DNA from: a virus
Lineage: Duplodnaviria; Caudoviricetes
Direction: 5' to 3' (one strand)
Length of the DNA stretch: 39,530 nucleotides
IMG/VR virus record: IMGVR_UViG_3300037478_000354
Span: 1-39,530 of that record
Below the pieces are notes generated by a model. It saw only the letters and a list, made by a program, of their open reading frames with translations. It searched no databases and was not told the origin of the DNA. This document shows, piece by piece, positions 3,183-20,845 of the stretch (its first letter is position 1; each line of letters opens with the position of its first letter). Made by a program: the position numbers and the translations under genes.

Positions 3183-3952
3183 GCGGGCTCCTTTCGCGTA
3201 GGGCGGCGGCGGCGGTGGCGCCATTCGGCGTTTCTGCACAGCTCGCAGCGGCATCCCCAGTTGCGATAGGTGCTCGGTTCGGCGTGCGGTGCGAGGGTGG
3301 GGTCAGCGGCCAGCCGCCGCCGCCGGTCCGCTGCTTGTACTGCCTGCCGAGGCCGGTTGCGCTGGTGGTTCGCGTCCCGTTCGCACGTGCTGCGGCAGTA
3401 CTTCTGGTGCGGGTAGGCGACGAAGGCGATGTTGCAGTTTGTGCACCTGCGCTCCCGTGACTTGGTTGGCTTTGGTGGGCTGGGTTGCCGTTTGAGGCCG
3501 AGCCGCCGCCGCCGTTTCTGGATACCGTTGATGCCGCGGTTAAGGACGGTGGCCATCCGCTGGTCGGTGTGACCGATCTGGAACATGGCGCTTAGCCGAC
3601 GGTCTTCCTCGACGCTCCACGGCATGCCTTCGCGGGCGGTGGTGGGCTGGGGGACGTAGATGCCGTCCAGCCGCCGACCGGGGTGGCGTTCGGGGCTGGT
3701 TCTTCCACCCCAGATTCCATGCGCTTGCCCGGTTTCGGTTGCCCACTCGTAGCACTGTGCGACGACTTCGCAGGTGGCGCACACGGCTTTCGCGGCTGCG
3801 ATCTGAGCACGGATGGCGTCGCCGCGGGCGATTTCGTTCGGTGGGAAGAACAGCTCGGGGTCGTGGTATTGGCAGGCGGCGTCCAGCCGCCAGTTGCGCG
3901 CCGGCTCAGAGGTGGACTGGTGCTCGCCGGTGTGCACTCCGATGGCGGTCAT
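3179..3952 (-). CDS. whiB: WhiB-family regulator with C-terminal HTH and Zn-binding extensions
   Basis: WRLDAAC...DPELFFP...AKAVCATCEVVAQC...GIWGG WhiB signature. Confidence 0.9.
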   Translation of the reverse strand: MTAIGVHTGEHQSTSEPARNWRLDAACQYHDPELFFPPNEIARGDAIRAQIAAAKAVCATCEVVAQCYEWATETGQAHGIWGGRTSPERHPGRRLDGIYVPQPTTAREGMPWSVEEDRRLSAMFQIGHTDQRMATVLNRGINGIQKRRRRLGLKRQPSPPKPTKSRERRCTNCNIAFVAYPHQKYCRSTCERDANHQRNRPRQAVQAADRRRRLAADPTLAPHAEPSTYRNWGCRCELCRNAEWRHRRRRPTRKEPA

Positions 3953-4209
3953 GATGTGACCTCCTGGTGGTGGCCCGGCCGGGAGTCTGCGGTGCGGTTG
4001 ATATAGATGTGGCCACGGTCGGCCGGGTAGGCGGCGGTGCCGGACAGCCATCCGACCAGATGGTTGGCGATGGCCCGCCGGTCTGCGGGCTCGAGCAGGT
4101 ATCGGCCGCGCCACAGGTCGAGCAGCGTGTCCACTTGGGCGCGAGTGGTCGGGTCGAACTCGTGGAGGGCGGAGACGGCGGTCTCCTGGACGCGGGTGAG
4201 CGGGGTCAT
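3949..4209 (-). CDS. Hypothetical protein
   Basis: ATGA coupling both ends. Confidence 0.6.
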   Translation of the reverse strand: MTPLTRVQETAVSALHEFDPTTRAQVDTLLDLWRGRYLLEPADRRAIANHLVGWLSGTAAYPADRGHIYINRTADSRPGHHQEVTS

Positions 4210-5441
4210 GACGGCACCCCCAGCGCAGCGGCCAGTTGCTCGCCGATGTAGCGGGTGTACGCGGGTGGGATAGCCTGTGAGAGTTCGTCGCCTGTCATCC
4301 AGTCGATACCCATGCACAGCGGGCCCGCGTGAACGCCGATGTTGCCGGTGACCGATAGGTTGTAACCGTTGGCTAGGGCGCTGATCCGGTTCTTGGTGCT
4401 GGTCGGCCGGCGGTGGCGCGGGTGGGGTGGCTGTGCCAGTAGTGCGGTGATTCGCGGGTCGATGGTGAAGCGGCGGTGGCGGACCGTGCGCAGTCCGAAC
4501 ATTTCACCGCACAGCAGGATGTCCGCACGGTTATGTGCGGCGCCCACGTTTTCAACCACCCACACCGCAGGTTGCTCGCCGAGCAGATCGAGGGTGGCGT
4601 TGAGCATCCAGCCGGTGCCGTGCTTGCCGGCGCGCGCGCGTAGCGGGCTGTGGTCCTGGCACGGTGGGCTCGCGTGGATGGCGTCGTACTCGTGGCCGTG
4701 CGCGGCCAGGTACTCCAGCGCATCGCCCTGGACGAACTCGAACGGATATCGCGGCTGCGGCTCGATGTCCACGCCGACCACGTCGAATCCGGCACGGTGG
4801 TATCCCATGGCCGCACCGCCAGCTCCACAAAACAGGTCGAGCAGACGACGGCGGTGCTGCGCGCGGCATCCGCCTGGACTTAGAAAACCTTGGGCCGCCC
4901 CCTTGACGGGTGCATCTACACCGGGATACGGTGTAGATACACCAACAGAGGAGATGCCATGAGAACTGTCACCGCTATCTACGCCCCCCGCATCGCCCGC
5001 GCCATCGACACCAACGACTCCGCCACCATCGCGCTGGTCGAGGACCTGATGCGTGACGGGCGCAGCGGACTCGACGGGCTGAGCACCACGGCGTTCGCCC
5101 GCGTCGCCCGCGAGGCCATGGCCACCGCCTTGGTCATCGCGCTGGCAGGCGAGCTGGTCGACTACTGCGAGGCGGTCGGGCTGGCCGTCCCAACCCTGCG
5201 GATCTGAGATGCCTGACCAGCCCAAGACTCCGCTGCGGTCGCTGCGCATCGATGACGCGTTGTGGTCGGCGGCGTTGGACAAGGCCCGTTCGCAGGGCCG
5301 AACGCTGTCCGAGGTGATCCGGGAGTGGCTGCGGGAGTACGTCCGTTGAGCCACCCCGTTCTGACCGCGCACCACGTCAAGGTGCGCGGTCCGACGGTGG
5401 CCCGCCCCGGTGGCGTAAACGTTGGCCCGGTTGACGGTCAT
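4206..5441 (-). CDS. DNA cytosine-C5 methyltransferase-like protein with long N-terminal extension (MTase domain ~4206-4850)
   Basis: LLDLFCGAGG (motif I), HASPPCQ (motif IV), VVENV (motif VI), R.R motif; only coupled start is ATG 5441. Confidence 0.85.
   Translation of the reverse strand: MTVNRANVYATGAGHRRTAHLDVVRGQNGVAQRTYSRSHSRITSDSVRPCERALSNAADHNASSMRSDRSGVLGWSGISDPQGWDGQPDRLAVVDQLACQRDDQGGGHGLAGDAGERRGAQPVESAAPVTHQVLDQRDGGGVVGVDGAGDAGGVDSGDSSHGISSVGVSTPYPGVDAPVKGAAQGFLSPGGCRAQHRRRLLDLFCGAGGAAMGYHRAGFDVVGVDIEPQPRYPFEFVQGDALEYLAAHGHEYDAIHASPPCQDHSPLRARAGKHGTGWMLNATLDLLGEQPAVWVVENVGAAHNRADILLCGEMFGLRTVRHRRFTIDPRITALLAQPPHPRHRRPTSTKNRISALANGYNLSVTGNIGVHAGPLCMGIDWMTGDELSQAIPPAYTRYIGEQLAAALGVPS
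4903..4942 (+). promoter_or_regulatory. Promoter TTGACG-N18-TACGGT overlapped by 14-bp inverted-repeat operator
   Basis: GTGCATCTACACCG-ggata-CGGTGTAGATACAC (1 mismatch) at 4910-4942. Confidence 0.7.
4959..5207 (+). CDS. Hypothetical protein (antisense-nested in MTase ORF)
   Basis: GAGGAG RBS, GC3-rich codons, MRTVTAIYAPRIARAIDT... Confidence 0.75.
   Translation: MRTVTAIYAPRIARAIDTNDSATIALVEDLMRDGRSGLDGLSTTAFARVAREAMATALVIALAGELVDYCEAVGLAVPTLRI
5209..5349 (+). CDS. Ribbon-helix-helix DNA-binding protein (46 aa)
   Basis: MPDQPKTPLRSLRIDDALWSAALDKARSQGRTLSEVIREWLREYVR is a typical RHH pattern; below ORF-track cutoff. Confidence 0.85.
   Translation: MPDQPKTPLRSLRIDDALWSAALDKARSQGRTLSEVIREWLREYVR
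5363..5391 (+). terminator. GC-rich hairpin after RHH gene, putative terminator
   Basis: GACCGCGCACC-acgtcaa-GGTGCGCGGTC perfect 11-bp stem. Confidence 0.55.
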
Positions 5442-5725
5442 GACGGCTCACCGCCGCTTGCGGCTACCGCGATCAGGTCCCGCAGCAATGCGGGCACATC
5501 ACGGCTGAGTCGGTGATCCCTGATCCACCCGTGGTCGAACCGCCACTGACCTTTAGCATCGATGCGCCAGACAGCGCCCATACGGTGGGTGTGACCTCGG
5601 CGGTACTGCCACGGGCCACGCTCGAGGTATATGTCGATCTCGGGGGGATAGTCGCGGTCAATGCGTACTTGCCATCCACCAGCGGTTACGGCGGTGCGGA
5701 TGAGTCGCCACGCTGCCGGGGTCAC
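5438..5725 (-). CDS. Hypothetical protein
   Basis: Trp-rich ORF coupled at both ends. Confidence 0.65.
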   Translation of the reverse strand: MTPAAWRLIRTAVTAGGWQVRIDRDYPPEIDIYLERGPWQYRRGHTHRMGAVWRIDAKGQWRFDHGWIRDHRLSRDVPALLRDLIAVAASGGEPS

Positions 5726-5883
5726 CGGGCACCTCCTACGGCGGCGCGTCCCGGCAGGAATCGCGTGTCCTCACGTACAGCGGGCACCTGTCGGGACGGC
5801 CGCAGGTGGTGCGCGCCCCGCGCTCGGCCCGTGGGCCCCCGTCGGTCACGCGGGCCGAGCAGCGAGCCGAACAGGGCGATCAC
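5722..5883 (-). CDS. Small hypothetical protein
   Basis: GTGA coupling both ends. Confidence 0.5.
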   Translation of the reverse strand: MIALFGSLLGPRDRRGPTGRARGAHHLRPSRQVPAVREDTRFLPGRAAVGGAR

Positions 5884-6473
5884 CGGGCACCCCCGATCAG
5901 CGATGCCATCAGCTGGCATGCCCCATCGGCCGGTGGGTCGAACCGCGGCTCGCCCTTGCCGCCGCGGCAGGTGGCGAACGACTCGGCCCAGTCCTCACCG
6001 GCCGCGCCGCGCCAGGTAGCCGTGTCCACGGCCCCGCCGCTGTAGCCGTACGACCAGGGCGCGTCAGCCGAAAACCCGCGGTACATGCGCCACAGCGCCC
6101 GGCCGTGATCGTCGAGGTAGGCCGCGTCCCAGGAGTGGCCGATCTCGTGTAGCACCGTCCACCTGACCTGGTCGTGGGTGTTGTGTGCGGCCGGCCAGAT
6201 GGTGATGGCCTGCCGGCGTCGGTTGGCCGATCCGATGAGGTCTGTTGAGGGACCGCAGTCGAAGTTGATCTGCCAGCCGTCGGGTAGTGCCGGTGCGTCG
6301 GCGACGTATTGGCTGCCATCGCAGGTGGGCGTGTCAGCGGTTGCTGTAGCAGTCCAGAGCATGGCGGCGCCAGCTGCTGTGGCTGCGATGGCGAGCAGGG
6401 TGATGCTGGCGCGGGCTGCGGGGCGGGTCTGCGGGTGGGTGGCCCACACGGTCAGGTGGTGGCGCCACATCAC
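5880..6473 (-). CDS. Secreted/anchored zincin-like metallopeptidase
   Basis: Hydrophobic signal ending ATATA-D; VLHEIGH (HEXXH) and EDWAESF. Confidence 0.7.
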   Translation of the reverse strand: MMWRHHLTVWATHPQTRPAARASITLLAIAATAAGAAMLWTATATADTPTCDGSQYVADAPALPDGWQINFDCGPSTDLIGSANRRRQAITIWPAAHNTHDQVRWTVLHEIGHSWDAAYLDDHGRALWRMYRGFSADAPWSYGYSGGAVDTATWRGAAGEDWAESFATCRGGKGEPRFDPPADGACQLMASLIGGAR

Positions 6474-6811
6474 GACTCACCGCCGAAGCGCTCGTTGATG
6501 TAGTTGAGGGCACGACGTTGCTCATCGGGGGACAAGTCACCGAGGACGTCGACAATGGTCGCGATGGCGGCAACCTCGGCGGTAGTCGAGACAGTCCGTC
6601 TTGCCCTTTCTACAGCGGCAGTGACGACGCCCTGTTCCTTCTCGTATGCGTCTAGGGCGTCGCTGATGACTTTGAGCGTGTGCCGAGTGGCTGGGCGACC
6701 AACCTCGATGTTGCGGATGGTGCCGCGATGGACACCCGAAAGCTCGGCGAGGCGTTGCTGTGACAGCTTGAGAGCTGTACGCCGGTCCAGGACAATAGCG
6801 CTGTCAATCAC
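6470..6811 (-). CDS. XRE-family HTH protein
   Basis: RRTALKLSQQRLAELSGVHRGTIRNIEVG; GTG start overlapping upstream stop. Confidence 0.85.
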   Translation of the reverse strand: MIDSAIVLDRRTALKLSQQRLAELSGVHRGTIRNIEVGRPATRHTLKVISDALDAYEKEQGVVTAAVERARRTVSTTAEVAAIATIVDVLGDLSPDEQRRALNYINERFGGES

Positions 6812-8074: not shown

Positions 8075-8195
8075 AGTGTTGCACTAGCTCCGTGCAGAAT
8101 CAACGCGCTGGGGGAAGTCGGCCCAAAGTTCACCTGAACGGGGGATGTGCAATCAACCCATAGGACTTGCTTTATGAACGGTATCCGTGCACCCT
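8075..8195. promoter_or_regulatory. Genetic switch: three operators TGMAC-N7-GTGCA with divergent promoters
   Basis: 8080-8096 TGCACtagctccGTGCA, 8135-8151 TGAACgggggatGTGCA, 8175-8191 TGAACggtatccGTGCA; TTGCTT-N17-CACCCT (+) and TTGATT-N17-AACACT (-). Confidence 0.75.
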
Positions 8196-8202
8196 AGTCG
8201 GT

Positions 8203-8592
8203 ATGCGAGCAGAGCAGACGCTAAGCACCGAGGTCGCCAGCGCGATTAAGCGCGAGCTCGGAGGTCAAGACCTAAACAAGTCAGAGCTGGCCCGCCGCCT
8301 TGGGGTCTCCCACACCTGGGTAACCAACCGACTCGCCGGCCATCTGGAGATCGGACTCAACGAGCTGCAGCGGATCGCCACCGCACTGCAAGTCCCGATC
8401 ACAGACCTACTACCACGGGAGGTTGCAGGGCAACTTAATAGACGCTTACCACTGGCAGCCGATCAGCTAACTCCCGCCCCCGGATATGCGACCCCCACCC
8501 TGGCCAACCCGCCACCCATGTACCAGTTGGCCGAACACGCAACCCGCAGACCTACCCGACTCACCAACCGGTCTGCCGATAGCACACGATGA
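8203..8592 (+). CDS. Immunity repressor (XRE HTH) with disordered C-terminal tail
   Basis: LNKSELARRLGVSHTWVTNRLAG; paralogous to Cro; coupled to integrase by ATGA. Confidence 0.85.
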   Translation: MRAEQTLSTEVASAIKRELGGQDLNKSELARRLGVSHTWVTNRLAGHLEIGLNELQRIATALQVPITDLLPREVAGQLNRRLPLAADQLTPAPGYATPTLANPPPMYQLAEHATRRPTRLTNRSADSTR

Positions 8593-9419
8593 CCGGCCGC
8601 GCACACCATCACCGCATGCCCCCGCACGGTGACCTGATCCACAGCTTCCTCGCCTACATGCGGGCCCAGCGCCGCACCCCAGCCACCATCCGCACCTACA
8701 CGAGCATCCTCTGGCACGCCCACCGTGACCTGCCCCAAGGGCTGCCGCTGGCCAACGAACGCGAGCTCGTGCTGTGGCTTGCCGGTGACTGGTCAGCCCG
8801 CACCCAGCACCTGTACACGTGCGCCGTCGCCGCGTTCTTCGACTGGTGCACCACCCACGGCGTCATCGACTTCAACCCGGCCGTCAACCTACCCCGACCC
8901 AGGCTGCCCAGACTGATACCCCGCCCGGCCACACCGGAGCAGGTCGCCACCATCCTCACCCAGGCACCCCAGCCGGTCCTATTGTGGTCGGCCATCGCCT
9001 GCTACTCCGGCGCCAGGGCGATAGAGATCGCTGGCATCGACCGGGAGCGGGACATCGCCGACCAGTCGCTGCGGCTGCGCGGCAAGGGCGGCAAAGAGCG
9101 GGTTGTGCCGCTGCACCCGCGGCTGCGGGCGATCCTCGGCGCGTGGCGGGGCCCGGTGGCCGAGGTGGGCGAGCGCAGGCTGTCCAACCAGGCGTGGAAG
9201 TCCTACCGCAGGATCGGGGTGGAGACGTCGATCCACCGGCTGCGCGCCTTTTTCGCCACCGAGCTGCTCAAGGTGGGGGTGGACTCGCGGATCGTGCAGG
9301 AGCTGCTGGGTCACGCGTCGCTGGCTACCACGCAGATCTACACGCTGGTCAGCCCGGGCCAGATGTCCGCGGCCGTGGCGCGACTGCCGGGCTTTGACGG
9401 CGGGGCCGGCGCTCCATGA
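8589..9419 (+). CDS. int: Tyrosine integrase/recombinase (Xer-sized, no arm-binding domain)
   Basis: GARAIE (R), GKGGKER (K), HRLR (HxxR), LLGH, TQIY (Y). Confidence 0.93.
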   Translation: MTGRAHHHRMPPHGDLIHSFLAYMRAQRRTPATIRTYTSILWHAHRDLPQGLPLANERELVLWLAGDWSARTQHLYTCAVAAFFDWCTTHGVIDFNPAVNLPRPRLPRLIPRPATPEQVATILTQAPQPVLLWSAIACYSGARAIEIAGIDRERDIADQSLRLRGKGGKERVVPLHPRLRAILGAWRGPVAEVGERRLSNQAWKSYRRIGVETSIHRLRAFFATELLKVGVDSRIVQELLGHASLATTQIYTLVSPGQMSAAVARLPGFDGGAGAP

Positions 9420-11458: not shown

Positions 11459-11488
11459 TTGACTTAGTTGGCTAGGCGTGCCTACCAT
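11459..11488 (+). promoter_or_regulatory. Sigma70-type promoter TTGACT-N18-TACCAT
   Basis: Near-consensus hexamers divergent from gntR. Confidence 0.6.
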
Positions 11489-11930: not shown

Positions 11931-12191
11931 ATGACCCAGCAGTACACCAACGCGCCCGTGCAGATCGTGGCGCCAAAGACAGTCGGTACCGCCTACATCC
12001 TGTGGGCATTTTTCAGTATCCTCGGCGTCCACCAGTTTTACATGGGCAAGACCGGTAGGGGCCTGTCGATGCTGTTCACTCTGGGGTGGCTTGGTGTTGG
12101 TGCGATCGTGGATTTGTTCACGATGGAGACTCAGGTTGCGGCAGTGAACCGGCGAAACGGGATCACCATGCAGTACCTGCAGTCCCGCTGA
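11931..12191 (+). CDS. TM2-domain membrane protein
   Basis: KTVGTAYILWAFFSILGVHQFYMGKTGRG...VDLF. Confidence 0.85.
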   Translation: MTQQYTNAPVQIVAPKTVGTAYILWAFFSILGVHQFYMGKTGRGLSMLFTLGWLGVGAIVDLFTMETQVAAVNRRNGITMQYLQSR

Positions 12192-12269: not shown

Positions 12270-12309
12270 TTGACATAACCCCTCCAGCGCAGTATCGTAT
12301 AGACATAAC
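12270..12309 (+). promoter_or_regulatory. Promoter TTGACA with GACATAAC direct repeats
   Basis: TTGACA 12270, TATCGT 12293; GACATAAC at 12272 and 12302. Confidence 0.65.
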
Positions 12310-12743: not shown

Positions 12744-13123
12744 CTACCACGACCATGGACCGCGACGCGTTCGTCCGCCAGCACTATGCCGAGGGTGTGG
12801 CCGAGTACCTACTCGGTGGCGACGGATTCTCGCCCGATCGCAGCGGCCCTCTCGGGGTCGCGTGGGACGGCATCTTCGCCGAGCTCGTGGGTGCAGGCTA
12901 CATGCGCCGCTCACAGACCGGCCGCTACTGGTGGAGCGGCACCGACCGCGGAGGTCGGCCTGCCGTCGGCCCGATGGTGTCCCACCGGATGCCCCAAGAC
13001 CTGATTGACCGGCTCGACGCTCACGCCGCAGCCACCGGCACGACTCGTTCCGACCTGCTCCGCCGAGGGGCCGAGCTCCTACTCACACAGGAGGCGGCGC
13101 TGGTCGAGCAGCACGCCCGTTGA
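12740..13123 (+). CDS. Protein with C-terminal ribbon-helix-helix (CopG-like) domain
   Basis: GRPAVGPMVSHRMPQDLIDRLDAHAAATGTTRSDLLRRG. Confidence 0.8.
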   Translation: MTTTTMDRDAFVRQHYAEGVAEYLLGGDGFSPDRSGPLGVAWDGIFAELVGAGYMRRSQTGRYWWSGTDRGGRPAVGPMVSHRMPQDLIDRLDAHAAATGTTRSDLLRRGAELLLTQEAALVEQHAR

Positions 13124-17840: not shown

Positions 17841-18638
17841 TCAGAGCGCGGTCACGGAAAGGTTCTGCCCGACAATGTTGATGAAAGGGCTTGAGTCGCT
17901 CGTTGTCACACGGTAGCGAGTCTCGAAGGTGTACACCCCGGGGTCCAGGATGCGACCACGCGTCCTGGTGGAGCCGACTGAGCCGGTGCTGCCACCCGAG
18001 AAGTTGAACACCAACCAGTTGCCGATAGACGGCTCTATCACTGCCGAGTCCGGGCCGGCGGGGCCAGTGATCCTGACACCAACCTCCCCGGACGCTGGCC
18101 CACCAGAGGCCAGGACGATGATGATGTGAGCTGATATGGAGATCAGAGCCTTGTTTATGATCTCTATGCCGCTGATCACCACCGGGTCGCCGGTCGGATG
18201 CGCGGCGAATCCCCCCGGCGGTGAAGTGGCCGCGGTGAACGAAGCATCGTTGAAGATGGACCCGGCGTCGGTGATCCGGTCGGCGAACACCTCGGCGGAG
18301 ATTTCTTTGGCGAGGTTCGTCTGCATGAACTGGACCGACTTGCTCGCGGCCCCCGACCCGGGAACGATCACCCGCCCGCCGGCGCCGATGCGCAGCGTTG
18401 TCGCCCCGCCGCCGGTGGGCTGCCACCTCGACAGCATGACCAAATCGCCAGCCTGGTATGTCAGCGCCTCCACCCCGGAGGCGACCGGGATGTCCGGGTG
18501 CTCACCACCCCGATAGACGATCACGTTCTCAAACGTGTCCGGGTTCCACGATTTGATGATCCCCTGGCCCCAGCCCGCGAACTCGGCGTTGGGTTGGATG
18601 AGAACCGAGGCGAGGTCGTCGCTGGCCCAGGCGCTCAC
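17841..18638 (-). CDS. Minor tail protein
   Basis: N-terminal OB-like QGIIKSWNPDTFENVI, beta-rich C-terminus. Confidence 0.7.
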   Translation of the reverse strand: MSAWASDDLASVLIQPNAEFAGWGQGIIKSWNPDTFENVIVYRGGEHPDIPVASGVEALTYQAGDLVMLSRWQPTGGGATTLRIGAGGRVIVPGSGAASKSVQFMQTNLAKEISAEVFADRITDAGSIFNDASFTAATSPPGGFAAHPTGDPVVISGIEIINKALISISAHIIIVLASGGPASGEVGVRITGPAGPDSAVIEPSIGNWLVFNFSGGSTGSVGSTRTRGRILDPGVYTFETRYRVTTSDSSPFINIVGQNLSVTAL

Positions 18639-20845
18639 GATGTCACCCTCCCGATCAGTACCTGTGTACGTTCGCGGGTGGTGCCGGACATGGTGCCGTC
18701 GGCGTTCAACGGTATGGTCACCGACTGCACGACGTGAATCTCCCGGTTACCGTCGCGCTGCGTGACCCGGATCGGATGCCACGGCCGCAGCGCCGGGTTG
18801 GCCACAGTTCCGAAGTCGGCCGAGTGGGGTGCGCCGAGCCGCCGGCGGAGCATGGCCCGGGCGGTGGACAGCGCCTGCGCCTCGGTTTTGATGAACGGGC
18901 TGGCGTAAAACCTGGGCACCTTCCCGAACCGGCCACCCCACCGGGTGGGCGAGTTCGGGCCGATGTCCACAGCCGCGGCGAACACCGGATCCTGCTGGTC
19001 GCCCCCCTCACCGCGGGCCACCACCCCGTTGAACACACCCTCGCGGTTGACCCGCCGGCCGGCGGACACAAGCACACCGTCCGTGCCGGCCTTCACCTCC
19101 CACAGCGGCACCGACTCGTCCGGGGCCGATTCGATCCGCAGGACGCCTTCCCCATCCCAGTACATGATCTTCCCGAAGGCTTGGGCCAGCTCGGCCAACG
19201 GCGCGTACCGGTCTTCTTCGAACATGACCCGCCGGTCGATGTCCGCGAAGCCGGTGTCATCGTCGAAAACGATCGTCGCCTGCGGGTACACCTCACCTAC
19301 CATGACTGCGAACACCGAGGCTACCGAGGTGTTCGGGGCGAATGATCGGGTAGTGACCAGCCGGGCGTCGATCAAACCGGCCATGCGGTCCTGCCCCGAG
19401 AGGGACAGTTCGCCGTAGGGTGCGTCGGCCTGCTCGGCCGAGTCGATGCGGAAGTAACCCAGCGGCGACCACAGCACAGCGTCACCGACGTCGACACCCC
19501 GGCGGGCCCAGATTTCGTTGCCGTATGGGGCGAGCAGGTCGGTGACGAGCCTGGGGAACCGAGACTCGCCGGTCTCGTCCTCGTCTACGCCGGCGGTGAT
19601 CAGCTGCAACGAGGCGAACACGGCGGCGGTCGCGTCAAACTGGACGTCCCCACCGAGGACGGGAATGGTAGCGCCGACCGGGTCGGCCCCGTCCTGGAAC
19701 GACGTGAGCACCCTGGCCTCAAACGTCGGCTGGTGCGAACCGTGCACCACCTCGGCGAACTCGACCACATCGGCCACGACAGCAGGCGCACTCAAACCGA
19801 ACAGTCGGACACCAGTAGCTACCAGCACCTCAGACAGCGGATCGAACAGGTAGGGGATGAGCGGCTGCGCCGCCTGCGCCATACTAACAACCGAACCCTG
19901 CACCACCAGCCCGAAAGCCTGCAGGTGAAAGTTCGGCAGAACGCCGGTTATCCGGTAGCCGAGCGGCGGCGGATCCAACACGTTGCCGCCACGGATATCG
20001 AACGGCGCCACACCCGCCGCACCTTCGGCGATCTTGTCTGCGATCGCACCATCTATGTCTGTTTCAATGGTAGCCACGTTGGTAATCGTGAAATCCAGGA
20101 TCTCTTCGATGGCCTGGTAGTGCATCGTGGTCCGGTCGGCCTCGCTGGGGGTTCCGGTGCGGTTCGTTTCGATGATGATCGACACGATGTGCCGCAGACT
20201 GGAATTGATGTCCAACACGATCAGGTCACCCCGATCGTCGGGACCCCAATGGTCGTTAGACCATCCTTCGGTGGTCATCCGGCCGAGGATCTGATCCCGA
20301 AGCGCCGACCCGTGCGCCACGATGTCATCGTGGATCTGCGGGTTGCCACCCCGGTTGCATTCAAGGTCGTTGCGATCCACAGTGCCAACGTATTCGTGGT
20401 GGTCGACCAGAATCATCGGTTTCAGCTGGCCTACGGTCAGCGACACCACGCGTGTCTCCGGCTGGGTCAACACAACCCAGTCCCGGTTCAGGTCCTCCCC
20501 GTTGGCGTTCTCCCGTGTCACCGCCTCGAACCCGTCCGGGTTCACCGATGGGATCAGGTGCACCCCGTGGGAAGCCAGAAACGCCAGCTCGCCCGAATCC
20601 ACGGTGGTGGACAGATAGTCGGCGAAGTCGAGGATCGCCTCCCGGCCCGCAGGCTCCAGGCCGTGCTGCATGCCCACCAGCAGCACCGCCGGGCGGGCAC
20701 CCACAGCCGGCGGCGGGTCACCCATGCGCAGCAGCCGGATCGGCCGGCCCTCAACAGATTCGCCGATGACATCGACCGCGCACCGGCCGGTGGACACCAG
20801 CGTGTCTATCAGGTCCGCCTCTTGCTGCAGGGTCCGGAAAGCCAT
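18635..20845 (-). CDS. M14 zinc carboxypeptidase fused to tail-tip hub (DUF5047-like) domain
   Basis: IGESVEGRPI, QHGLE, NPDG, RENANGEDLNRD, DHHE; C-terminal SPLGYFRI..GQDRM..FNGVVARGE..GRFGKVPRFYASP. Confidence 0.85.
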   Translation of the reverse strand: MAFRTLQQEADLIDTLVSTGRCAVDVIGESVEGRPIRLLRMGDPPPAVGARPAVLLVGMQHGLEPAGREAILDFADYLSTTVDSGELAFLASHGVHLIPSVNPDGFEAVTRENANGEDLNRDWVVLTQPETRVVSLTVGQLKPMILVDHHEYVGTVDRNDLECNRGGNPQIHDDIVAHGSALRDQILGRMTTEGWSNDHWGPDDRGDLIVLDINSSLRHIVSIIIETNRTGTPSEADRTTMHYQAIEEILDFTITNVATIETDIDGAIADKIAEGAAGVAPFDIRGGNVLDPPPLGYRITGVLPNFHLQAFGLVVQGSVVSMAQAAQPLIPYLFDPLSEVLVATGVRLFGLSAPAVVADVVEFAEVVHGSHQPTFEARVLTSFQDGADPVGATIPVLGGDVQFDATAAVFASLQLITAGVDEDETGESRFPRLVTDLLAPYGNEIWARRGVDVGDAVLWSPLGYFRIDSAEQADAPYGELSLSGQDRMAGLIDARLVTTRSFAPNTSVASVFAVMVGEVYPQATIVFDDDTGFADIDRRVMFEEDRYAPLAELAQAFGKIMYWDGEGVLRIESAPDESVPLWEVKAGTDGVLVSAGRRVNREGVFNGVVARGEGGDQQDPVFAAAVDIGPNSPTRWGGRFGKVPRFYASPFIKTEAQALSTARAMLRRRLGAPHSADFGTVANPALRPWHPIRVTQRDGNREIHVVQSVTIPLNADGTMSGTTRERTQVLIGRVTS

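Follow-up and report, generated by a model that had tools for sequence, protein, structure and literature searches.

An open frame crossing a reverse-oriented ribbon-helix-helix cassette in a phage operon: a candidate ribosome bridge

Noncontiguous operons, such as Staphylococcus aureus menEC and the cI/tha-1/ith-1 locus of phage 80alpha, carry one or more antisense genes, driven by a promoter of their own and embedded between operon genes of shared orientation (PMC11087260, PMC11034616). In the available text of these papers, the stretch opposite the antisense gene is described as untranslated. Transcription must cross this long stretch, which is explained by runaway transcription as in B. 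subtilis (PMC11034616), and reciprocal antisense control has been shown for phage 80alpha (PMC11087260). The available text of a study of a mycobacterium describes Rho-dominated termination and proposes that it is suppressed where stop codons overlap start codons (bioRxiv 2022.06.01.494293). In the Mycobacterium tuberculosis uORFs treated there, coupled translation shields the mRNA from premature termination, as we propose here; those uORFs are short leaders on the same strand, whereas the frames described below span about 100–290 codons and are fully antisense to real genes.

We analysed a whole virus record of 39,530 bp (the window). One locus within it has the gene layout of a noncontiguous operon, with antisense genes behind a predicted promoter of their own lying between co-oriented operon genes. 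It appears to differ from the described cases in the stretch opposite the antisense genes, which, as read from the sequence, is an open frame, coupled at both ends in relatives or fused to the next gene. We call it the bridge frame, after its proposed role. The architecture is thus known, and the bridge frame appears to be new.

The same ribbon-helix-helix (RHH) family, promoter and box type as in the window are found in Seagreen, Babsiella, Phegasus, Aggie, abscessus prophages and Gordonia phage GMA1. There, cassettes with variable cargo lie antisense in the right-arm operon, often beside a DNA methylase. They are annotated gene by gene; the bridge is mostly left unannotated and usually stops at the next start. 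Phage morons are likewise inserted units, with their own promoter and terminator; we know of none described with a coupled reverse frame such as that of the window cassette. Engineered non-polar cassettes keep downstream translation intact, and are artificial and on the sense strand; in-frame Rickettsia palindromic elements keep the reading frame and carry no antisense genes. No published description of such a bridge was found in a literature made up mostly of main texts outside subscription, and the available part of PMC2884959 lists Tweety's methylases without mention of one.

A reverse-oriented cassette in a coupled operon

The window encodes WhiB, ERF and an integrase–repressor pair (Pfam scan; the pair at 8167-9419) and has 68% G+C around the locus, features that point to a temperate actinobacterial phage, with the host read from the same evidence. 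The leftward early genes from 4209 to 1743 form a chain of overlapping stops and starts. Upstream of the locus, the 95-aa gene has no Pfam or PHROG match. A Logan contig from run X1, possibly the source sample, spans 3689-6500 at a depth of 45 with 0 differences and 0 gaps. This speaks against an assembly indel, which the sequence-only reading had raised together with a start at ATG 4869. No joint skipping the cassette was seen in the DNA contigs of three runs, which show presence and not absence. Near-identical phages occur in runs X2 and X3, and none of the runs listed for the region is an RNA data set. Scans of viral contigs with the cargo gave one weak match, and those with the upstream gene and with the exact operator pattern gave 0; no sibling phage lacking the cassette emerged from them.

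Table 1. Features of the cassette and its surroundings in the window
Feature	Position	Strand	Details
SigA-type promoter motif (predicted)	4903..4932	+	TTGACG 4903-4908, 18 nt, TACGGT 4927-4932
Two 10-bp quasi-palindromic boxes	4911-4920, 4932-4941	+	covering spacer and -10/+1; putative operator of the RHH protein
Cargo gene	4959..5207	+	82 aa, four-helix, unnamed family; GAGGAG RBS
Arc-like RHH protein	5209..5349	+	46 aa; phrog_6506 E 8e-15
G+C-rich hairpin	5363..5391		stem of 11 bp, loop of 7 nt; lacks a U-tract; can fold on either strand
12-bp direct repeat, copy 1	5436..5447		upstream stop / bridge start
12-bp direct repeat, copy 2	4204..4215		methyltransferase stop / next start
Upstream operon gene	5438..5725	-	95 aa; TGA overlaps ATG 5441 (ATGA)
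Bridge frame	4845..5441	-	199 stop-free codons, in register with cargo; fused to methyltransferase
C5 DNA methyltransferase domain	4206..4844	-	no start of its own; stop overlaps next gene at 4209
Out-of-frame ATG 4869	4867..4869	-	105-aa ORF 4552-4869, one base off methyltransferase frame

The plus-strand promoter, 82-aa gene, 46-aa RHH gene in another register and hairpin listed by the sequence-only reading are all present (Table 1). The promoter motif is one of three SigA-type matches in the window, against 0.38 by chance, and is kept in the closest relative (L077) and other cassettes; a scan for E. coli-type promoters and terminators found nothing. The operator had been described as a 14-bp inverted repeat. 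A repeat is indeed there, with 15-nt arms (4909-4923/4929-4943), but a pair of 10-bp boxes describes the sequence better; boxes of this kind (TGTAnnTACA) lie over the promoters of most related RHH cassettes. The RHH protein likely autorepresses the cassette by binding its two boxes. The earlier picture of a self-regulating cassette likely holds; its companion claim, that the open frame is an extension of the methyltransferase, does not. In L094, a 12-bp tandem duplication within the operator creates a third box and preserves the bridge frame. Five RHH-only loci (L308, L312, L319, L322 and L324) carry three to four TGTAGCTACA boxes between divergent genes, without a bridge; here, the RHH likely controls a divergent operon.

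The phrog_6506 match of the RHH protein, together with 53 homologues of the cargo and its confident predicted fold (pLDDT 93), marks both as real gene families. Pfam RHH_1 matches the 46-aa ORF at E 0.002, below the cut-off, and the register of this ORF is offset by +1 from the cargo frame. The cargo has no Pfam match above the cut-off and no PHROG or PADLOC name, and fold and atlas searches gave no clear match (best Z 5.4, rmsd 2.9 over 59 residues, which is background). The hairpin is a candidate terminator of the cassette; a comparable hairpin (12-bp stem, 7-nt loop) follows the RHH gene in L077.

The 12-bp direct repeat, the longest such pair among 28 loci, brackets a 1232-bp module and suggests that cassette and methyltransferase arrived together at a gene junction. 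Junction repeats are mostly 5–8 bp; the exceptions, of 10–12 bp, are L119, L331 and the window module. In L119, an 11-bp duplication of the downstream gene's start lies on both sides of the cassette. The hallmarks of MPME or IS-like elements are terminal inverted repeats, a target duplication and a transposase. A mobile element of this type was rejected, as the cassette has no terminal inverted repeat, the Pfam scan gave no transposase match and junction repeats are mostly short.

The methyltransferase and its missing start

The minus-strand ORF 4206-5441 encodes 411 aa. Pfam C5 DNA methylase (PF00145) matches residues 199-301 and phrog_363 residues 196-405, and motif I (FCGAGG), SPPC, ENV and the C-terminal motif are all intact. 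The last in-frame ATG, GTG or TTG before motif I (L200, CTG 4844) is TTG 5225, 127 codons upstream and without an RBS, which leaves ATG 5441 as the sole coupled start. In this, the sequence-only reading was right: it had noted the lack of an in-frame start for about 130 codons, the ATGA overlap as the only coupled start, and a stop-free N-terminal extension of about 190 codons, which measures 199.

Its view of the extension as part of the enzyme fared otherwise. We compared 240 loci of homologues, 80 from each of three scans (viral, genome and metagenome). In 204 of them, the start lies 2–12 codons before motif I; 13 start farther away or have no start, and 23 were missed by the motif pattern. 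The window enzyme, with 127 codons, departs from this subfamily trait. The best 120 of 7,992 protein matches cover at most 54% of the 411 residues. Together, these observations place the extension outside the enzyme family. Similar frames cross RHH cassettes between many unrelated gene pairs and mostly end in a stop overlapping the next start, the fusion in the window being a variant of this pattern. The cassette had been described as nested inside an intact methyltransferase ORF; the 411-codon frame does span it, but the cassette lies upstream of the conserved domain. The methyltransferase has a dN/dS of 0.08-0.30 against eight homologues, a pairwise measure that spans long branches and is blind to recent loss or current production of the enzyme. 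The single-sequence fold of the 411-aa protein is uninformative (pLDDT 32). The out-of-frame ATG 4869 is possibly a relic of the original coupled start.

The frame recurs and is phase-locked to both junctions in relatives

L077 shares 72% DNA identity with the window over 5350-4658, from the RHH gene through cargo and promoter into the methyltransferase. Upstream of its cassette lies an unrelated gene (DUF1643) whose stop overlaps the bridge start as ATGA, and the L077 methyltransferase has its own GGAGG and GTG. A homologue translated from such a nearby start had been named as evidence against the extension. L077 is one, but its frame across the cassette is stop-free and ends on that very start, the bridge TGA overlapping the GTG.

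Annotated genomes show the same anatomy. In L082, L084, L085 and L087, the bridge begins with a GTG at the stop of an upstream methylase, stays open through RHH, cargo and promoter, and stops on the GenBank-annotated start of the next gene; in L085, the bridge itself is annotated in GenBank as a 200-aa gene. In Seagreen-type cassettes, the bridge stop lies 8 bases before a predicted ATG, which is the annotated start in Babsiella. Where one cassette is joined to different downstream genes, the span changes only by multiples of 3 (595, 601, 607 and 616). In five of the 24 bridged loci (the window, L297, L331, L350 and L366), the bridge is fused in frame to the downstream gene, and only in the window does that gene lack any start.

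Openness alone is weak evidence, as the in-register antisense frame of G+C-rich genes contains only 0.8% stops per codon. The probability of an open frame in the window is 0.08 under synonymous recoding with shuffling of non-coding parts, and 0.46 when recoding is confined to the coding parts; over 13 cassettes, the mean under recoding is 0.086. Phase was therefore tested at both junctions. One of nine junction phases gives a bridge in the window, which combined with openness amounts to about a 1% chance. Odds of this size are nothing unusual when a whole genome is scanned, and it is the recurrence in relatives that carries the case.

In the phase test, 0–2 bases were added at each junction and survival of the bridge was scored in the nine combinations, of which typically two retain it. 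Bridge ends were tolerated from -10 to +5 nt, and an RBS start within 20 nt. Most junctions came from a custom gene finder with a bonus for stop-overlapping starts; those of the window and L309 were set by hand. The discovery set was hand-chosen from 82 distinct RHH loci, with loci and tolerance picked post hoc, and a bridge is present in 18 of its 24 cargo-plus-RHH loci, including the window, versus 4.0 expected. Excluded from the set were near-duplicates of the abscessus cassettes and of those of the cluster-F type, loci flanked on one side at most, and L323, for which no junction was set. With one locus per cargo, 12 of 18 are bridged (2.6 expected), and strict overlap at both ends, with the window excluded, gives 8 of 18 (1.0 expected).

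Because the discovery thresholds were post hoc, a held-out set was scored with rules fixed beforehand and without edits. It comprised 68 new loci with 37 new RHH proteins, of which 16 were flanked on both sides within 1100 bp; the other 21 were not and went unscored. Six of the 16 are bridged versus 1.9 expected (P 0.0017), and four show strict overlap versus 0.78 expected (P 0.003). In six of the seven loci with any usable open phase, that phase is the bridging one. L403 was counted as a miss, and a manual reading puts its frame end on a plausible GTGA start. We conclude that the bridge is a real, recurrent and probably selected feature, in line with the proposal that the open frame is kept non-randomly. 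Our initial reading, a frame open by chance, was dropped after the L077 comparison and the phase test.

Six of the 24 loci in the discovery set lack a bridge, as do 10 of the 16 in the held-out set. In L278, a strong hairpin lies between the upstream gene and the cassette, and some other non-bridged loci adjoin integrase or tail-like genes. Loci with an RHH gene only are bridged in 0 of 16 discovery and 3 of 8 held-out cases and thus do not form a clean negative control. Across the 24 bridged loci, the upstream neighbours form 17 clusters and the downstream neighbours 20; one upstream junction is common to eight of the loci. Non-RHH antisense islands are bridged in 4 of 19 cases (1.1 expected), seemingly including L145, L177 and L364, which are possibly gene-finder mis-calls. 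These islands were not counted as support, because a mis-called real gene would mimic a bridge.

A DNA methylase family match flanks the cassette in 11 of 26 scanned loci, or 8 of 23 after removal of loci found through the methyltransferase. This adjacency may reflect no more than the position of the variable operon region; in L346, a bridge is present beside an amidase. An apparent nesting of the RHH gene within methylases (37 of the 40 matches listed overlap) proved to be a tail-to-tail overlap of about 25–30 bp. Several methylase genes show features of their own. In L082, L083 and L085, a second long open frame lies in another register inside the upstream C5 methylase gene, and Babsiella gp55 is annotated inside gp54, a frame within a C5 methylase. 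Such nested frames resemble two-polypeptide C5 methylases encoded in alternative frames. In L309, the start of the bridge looks like the N terminus of an N4/N6 methylase, and the downstream gene is an N4/N6 methylase whose TTG start overlaps the stop of the bridge; the cassette was apparently inserted into the 5' end of a methylase. In L087 (Phegasus), the cassette lies behind a DpdA-like tRNA-guanine transglycosylase, another DNA-modification gene.

A proposed ribosome bridge and alternative explanations

The promoter–cargo–RHH cassette lies in reverse orientation within a coupled operon, and the open frame crossing it probably acts as a bridge for ribosomes. After reinitiating at the stop of the upstream gene, they would go on translating across the antisense cassette and so bring translation to the downstream genes; the product itself would be irrelevant. 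This translation would likely prevent premature termination on the operon mRNA, and the trailing ribosome would also mask the hairpin, which can fold on both strands. Selection may act through polarity, by Rho and/or the hairpin, and through lost coupling to WhiB, the exonuclease and ERF. The C>G bias expected at Rho sites is not seen in the bridged stretches (C/G 0.74-1.19), so we regard Rho as one candidate and plain loss of translational coupling as another. The downstream genes of relatives often have their own RBS.

Such bridges would be easy to evolve, because G+C-rich codon usage gives a nearly stop-free in-register antisense frame; selection would then settle the phase at the two junctions. 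A reverse-oriented insert of 300–870 bases would be polar in actinobacterial hosts unless it were translated, so that in-phase open inserts would be retained. In the window, the usual stop/start at the end of the bridge may have been lost, the methyltransferase then being made as a 411-aa fusion from ATG 5441. The fusion could have arisen from a coupled state like that of L077, with ATG 4869 as the old start, by stop loss and a one-base shift, or else by an insertion at a 6-bp repeat behind codon 17; the comparison with L077 speaks slightly for the former. We lean towards the wider proposition that bridges of 100–290 codons in actinobacterial phages are selected for phase and not for protein, and that the window bridge has become obligatory through its fusion to the methyltransferase.

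If this is true, a backwards gene insertion is made non-polar in hosts where Rho polices untranslated RNA, each methyltransferase molecule includes a stretch encoded antisense to two genes and a promoter, and methylation is directly exposed to the RHH-controlled counter-transcription of the cassette. The bridge would offer a candidate answer to how transcription in noncontiguous operons survives the untranslated stretch opposite an antisense gene. It would also account for a class of long antisense ORFs in G+C-rich phages, kept by selection for being translated and not for their protein, predict a phase rule for mosaic gene insertion, and warn against annotating bridge frames as genes or N-terminal extensions. 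The arrangement is present in culturable M. smegmatis and Gordonia phages and is directly testable there.

The main purpose of the arrangement could instead be an antisense or collision switch, in which the cassette damps the operon in the lysogen and the operon silences the cassette during lytic growth. The convergent nested architecture fits, as shown for the noncontiguous operons of staphylococcal phages (PMC11087260), and the integrase and repressor suggest a temperate phage. A switch leaves the phase-locked frame unexplained, however, and boxes over the promoter predict a low, autorepressed output; in the available text of PMC11087260, the effect of antisense transcription is minor beside that of the protein. 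We therefore hold the switch to be a tentative and rather unlikely main purpose. It is compatible with a ribosome bridge and may be layered on top of it.

It is doubtful that the bridge is real in the family and the window methyltransferase nevertheless no fusion, being a recent pseudogene, started at the near-cognate CTG 4844 or made by slippage from ATG 4869. The homologues start close to motif I, ATG 4869 stands at the expected site of the coupled start one base out of frame, and none of the best 120 homologues has the extension. Against this, CTG 4844 has no RBS, the motifs are intact with a low dN/dS, in-frame downstream fusions occur in four other loci, and it would take a coincidence for the lost bridge stop to open into the methyltransferase frame.

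Cargo and RHH were also proposed to form a toxin–antitoxin-like unit. Two small coupled genes, an RHH regulator and a predicted operator over the promoter would suit a type II system, but the dedicated pairing of cognates that defines such systems is lacking: a single RHH family is found with 22 cargo ORFs that fall into 19 unrelated clusters, and it also occurs alone. The 46-aa RHH protein has little beyond a DNA-binding fold and PADLOC matches 0 of 33 cargo homologues, which makes this proposal quite improbable.

A functionless shadow of codon usage, with a coincidental fusion in the window, could account for an open frame in register with the cargo, given the scarcity of antisense stops and the higher of the two estimates of openness. 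Openness cannot fix the phase of both junctions, as found in the discovery and held-out sets alike, and we judge a shadow very improbable.

That the bridge encodes a functional overlapping protein or a methyltransferase domain is highly improbable. The frame is open and coupled, G+C reaches 0.87 at the third positions of its first 30 codons, and one record annotates it as a gene. Its identity between the window and L077 (51% over the cargo, 65% over the RHH gene) is nevertheless not above that of the sense proteins (57% and 66%); the bridge ends are unrelated between loci, and the register relative to the RHH gene follows the cargo. On these comparisons, the bridge is a conserved property and not a conserved protein, its sequence being no better kept than the opposite-strand proteins force.

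Barely credible is excision or splicing of the 546 bp between CGACGG repeats (4846-4851 and 5392-5397) to restore a short methyltransferase: this length is divisible by 3 and the right-hand repeat adjoins the hairpin, but six-base repeats are at background level, the cassette has no recombinase and L077 needs no such event. A self-splicing intron or intein was rejected, with 0 Rfam matches at E<=1 over 4000-6000 and no intein family in the Pfam scan.

Two further SigA-type promoter motifs lie elsewhere in the window. These motifs, at 11459-11488 and 12270-12298 on the plus strand, precede small rightward genes, among which a TM2-domain protein is encoded at 11931-12191, and a GTACCTAC box lies at 12805. 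On the minus strand, 18635-20845 encodes a 736-aa tail-region protein whose first half looks, by eye, like a zinc carboxypeptidase.
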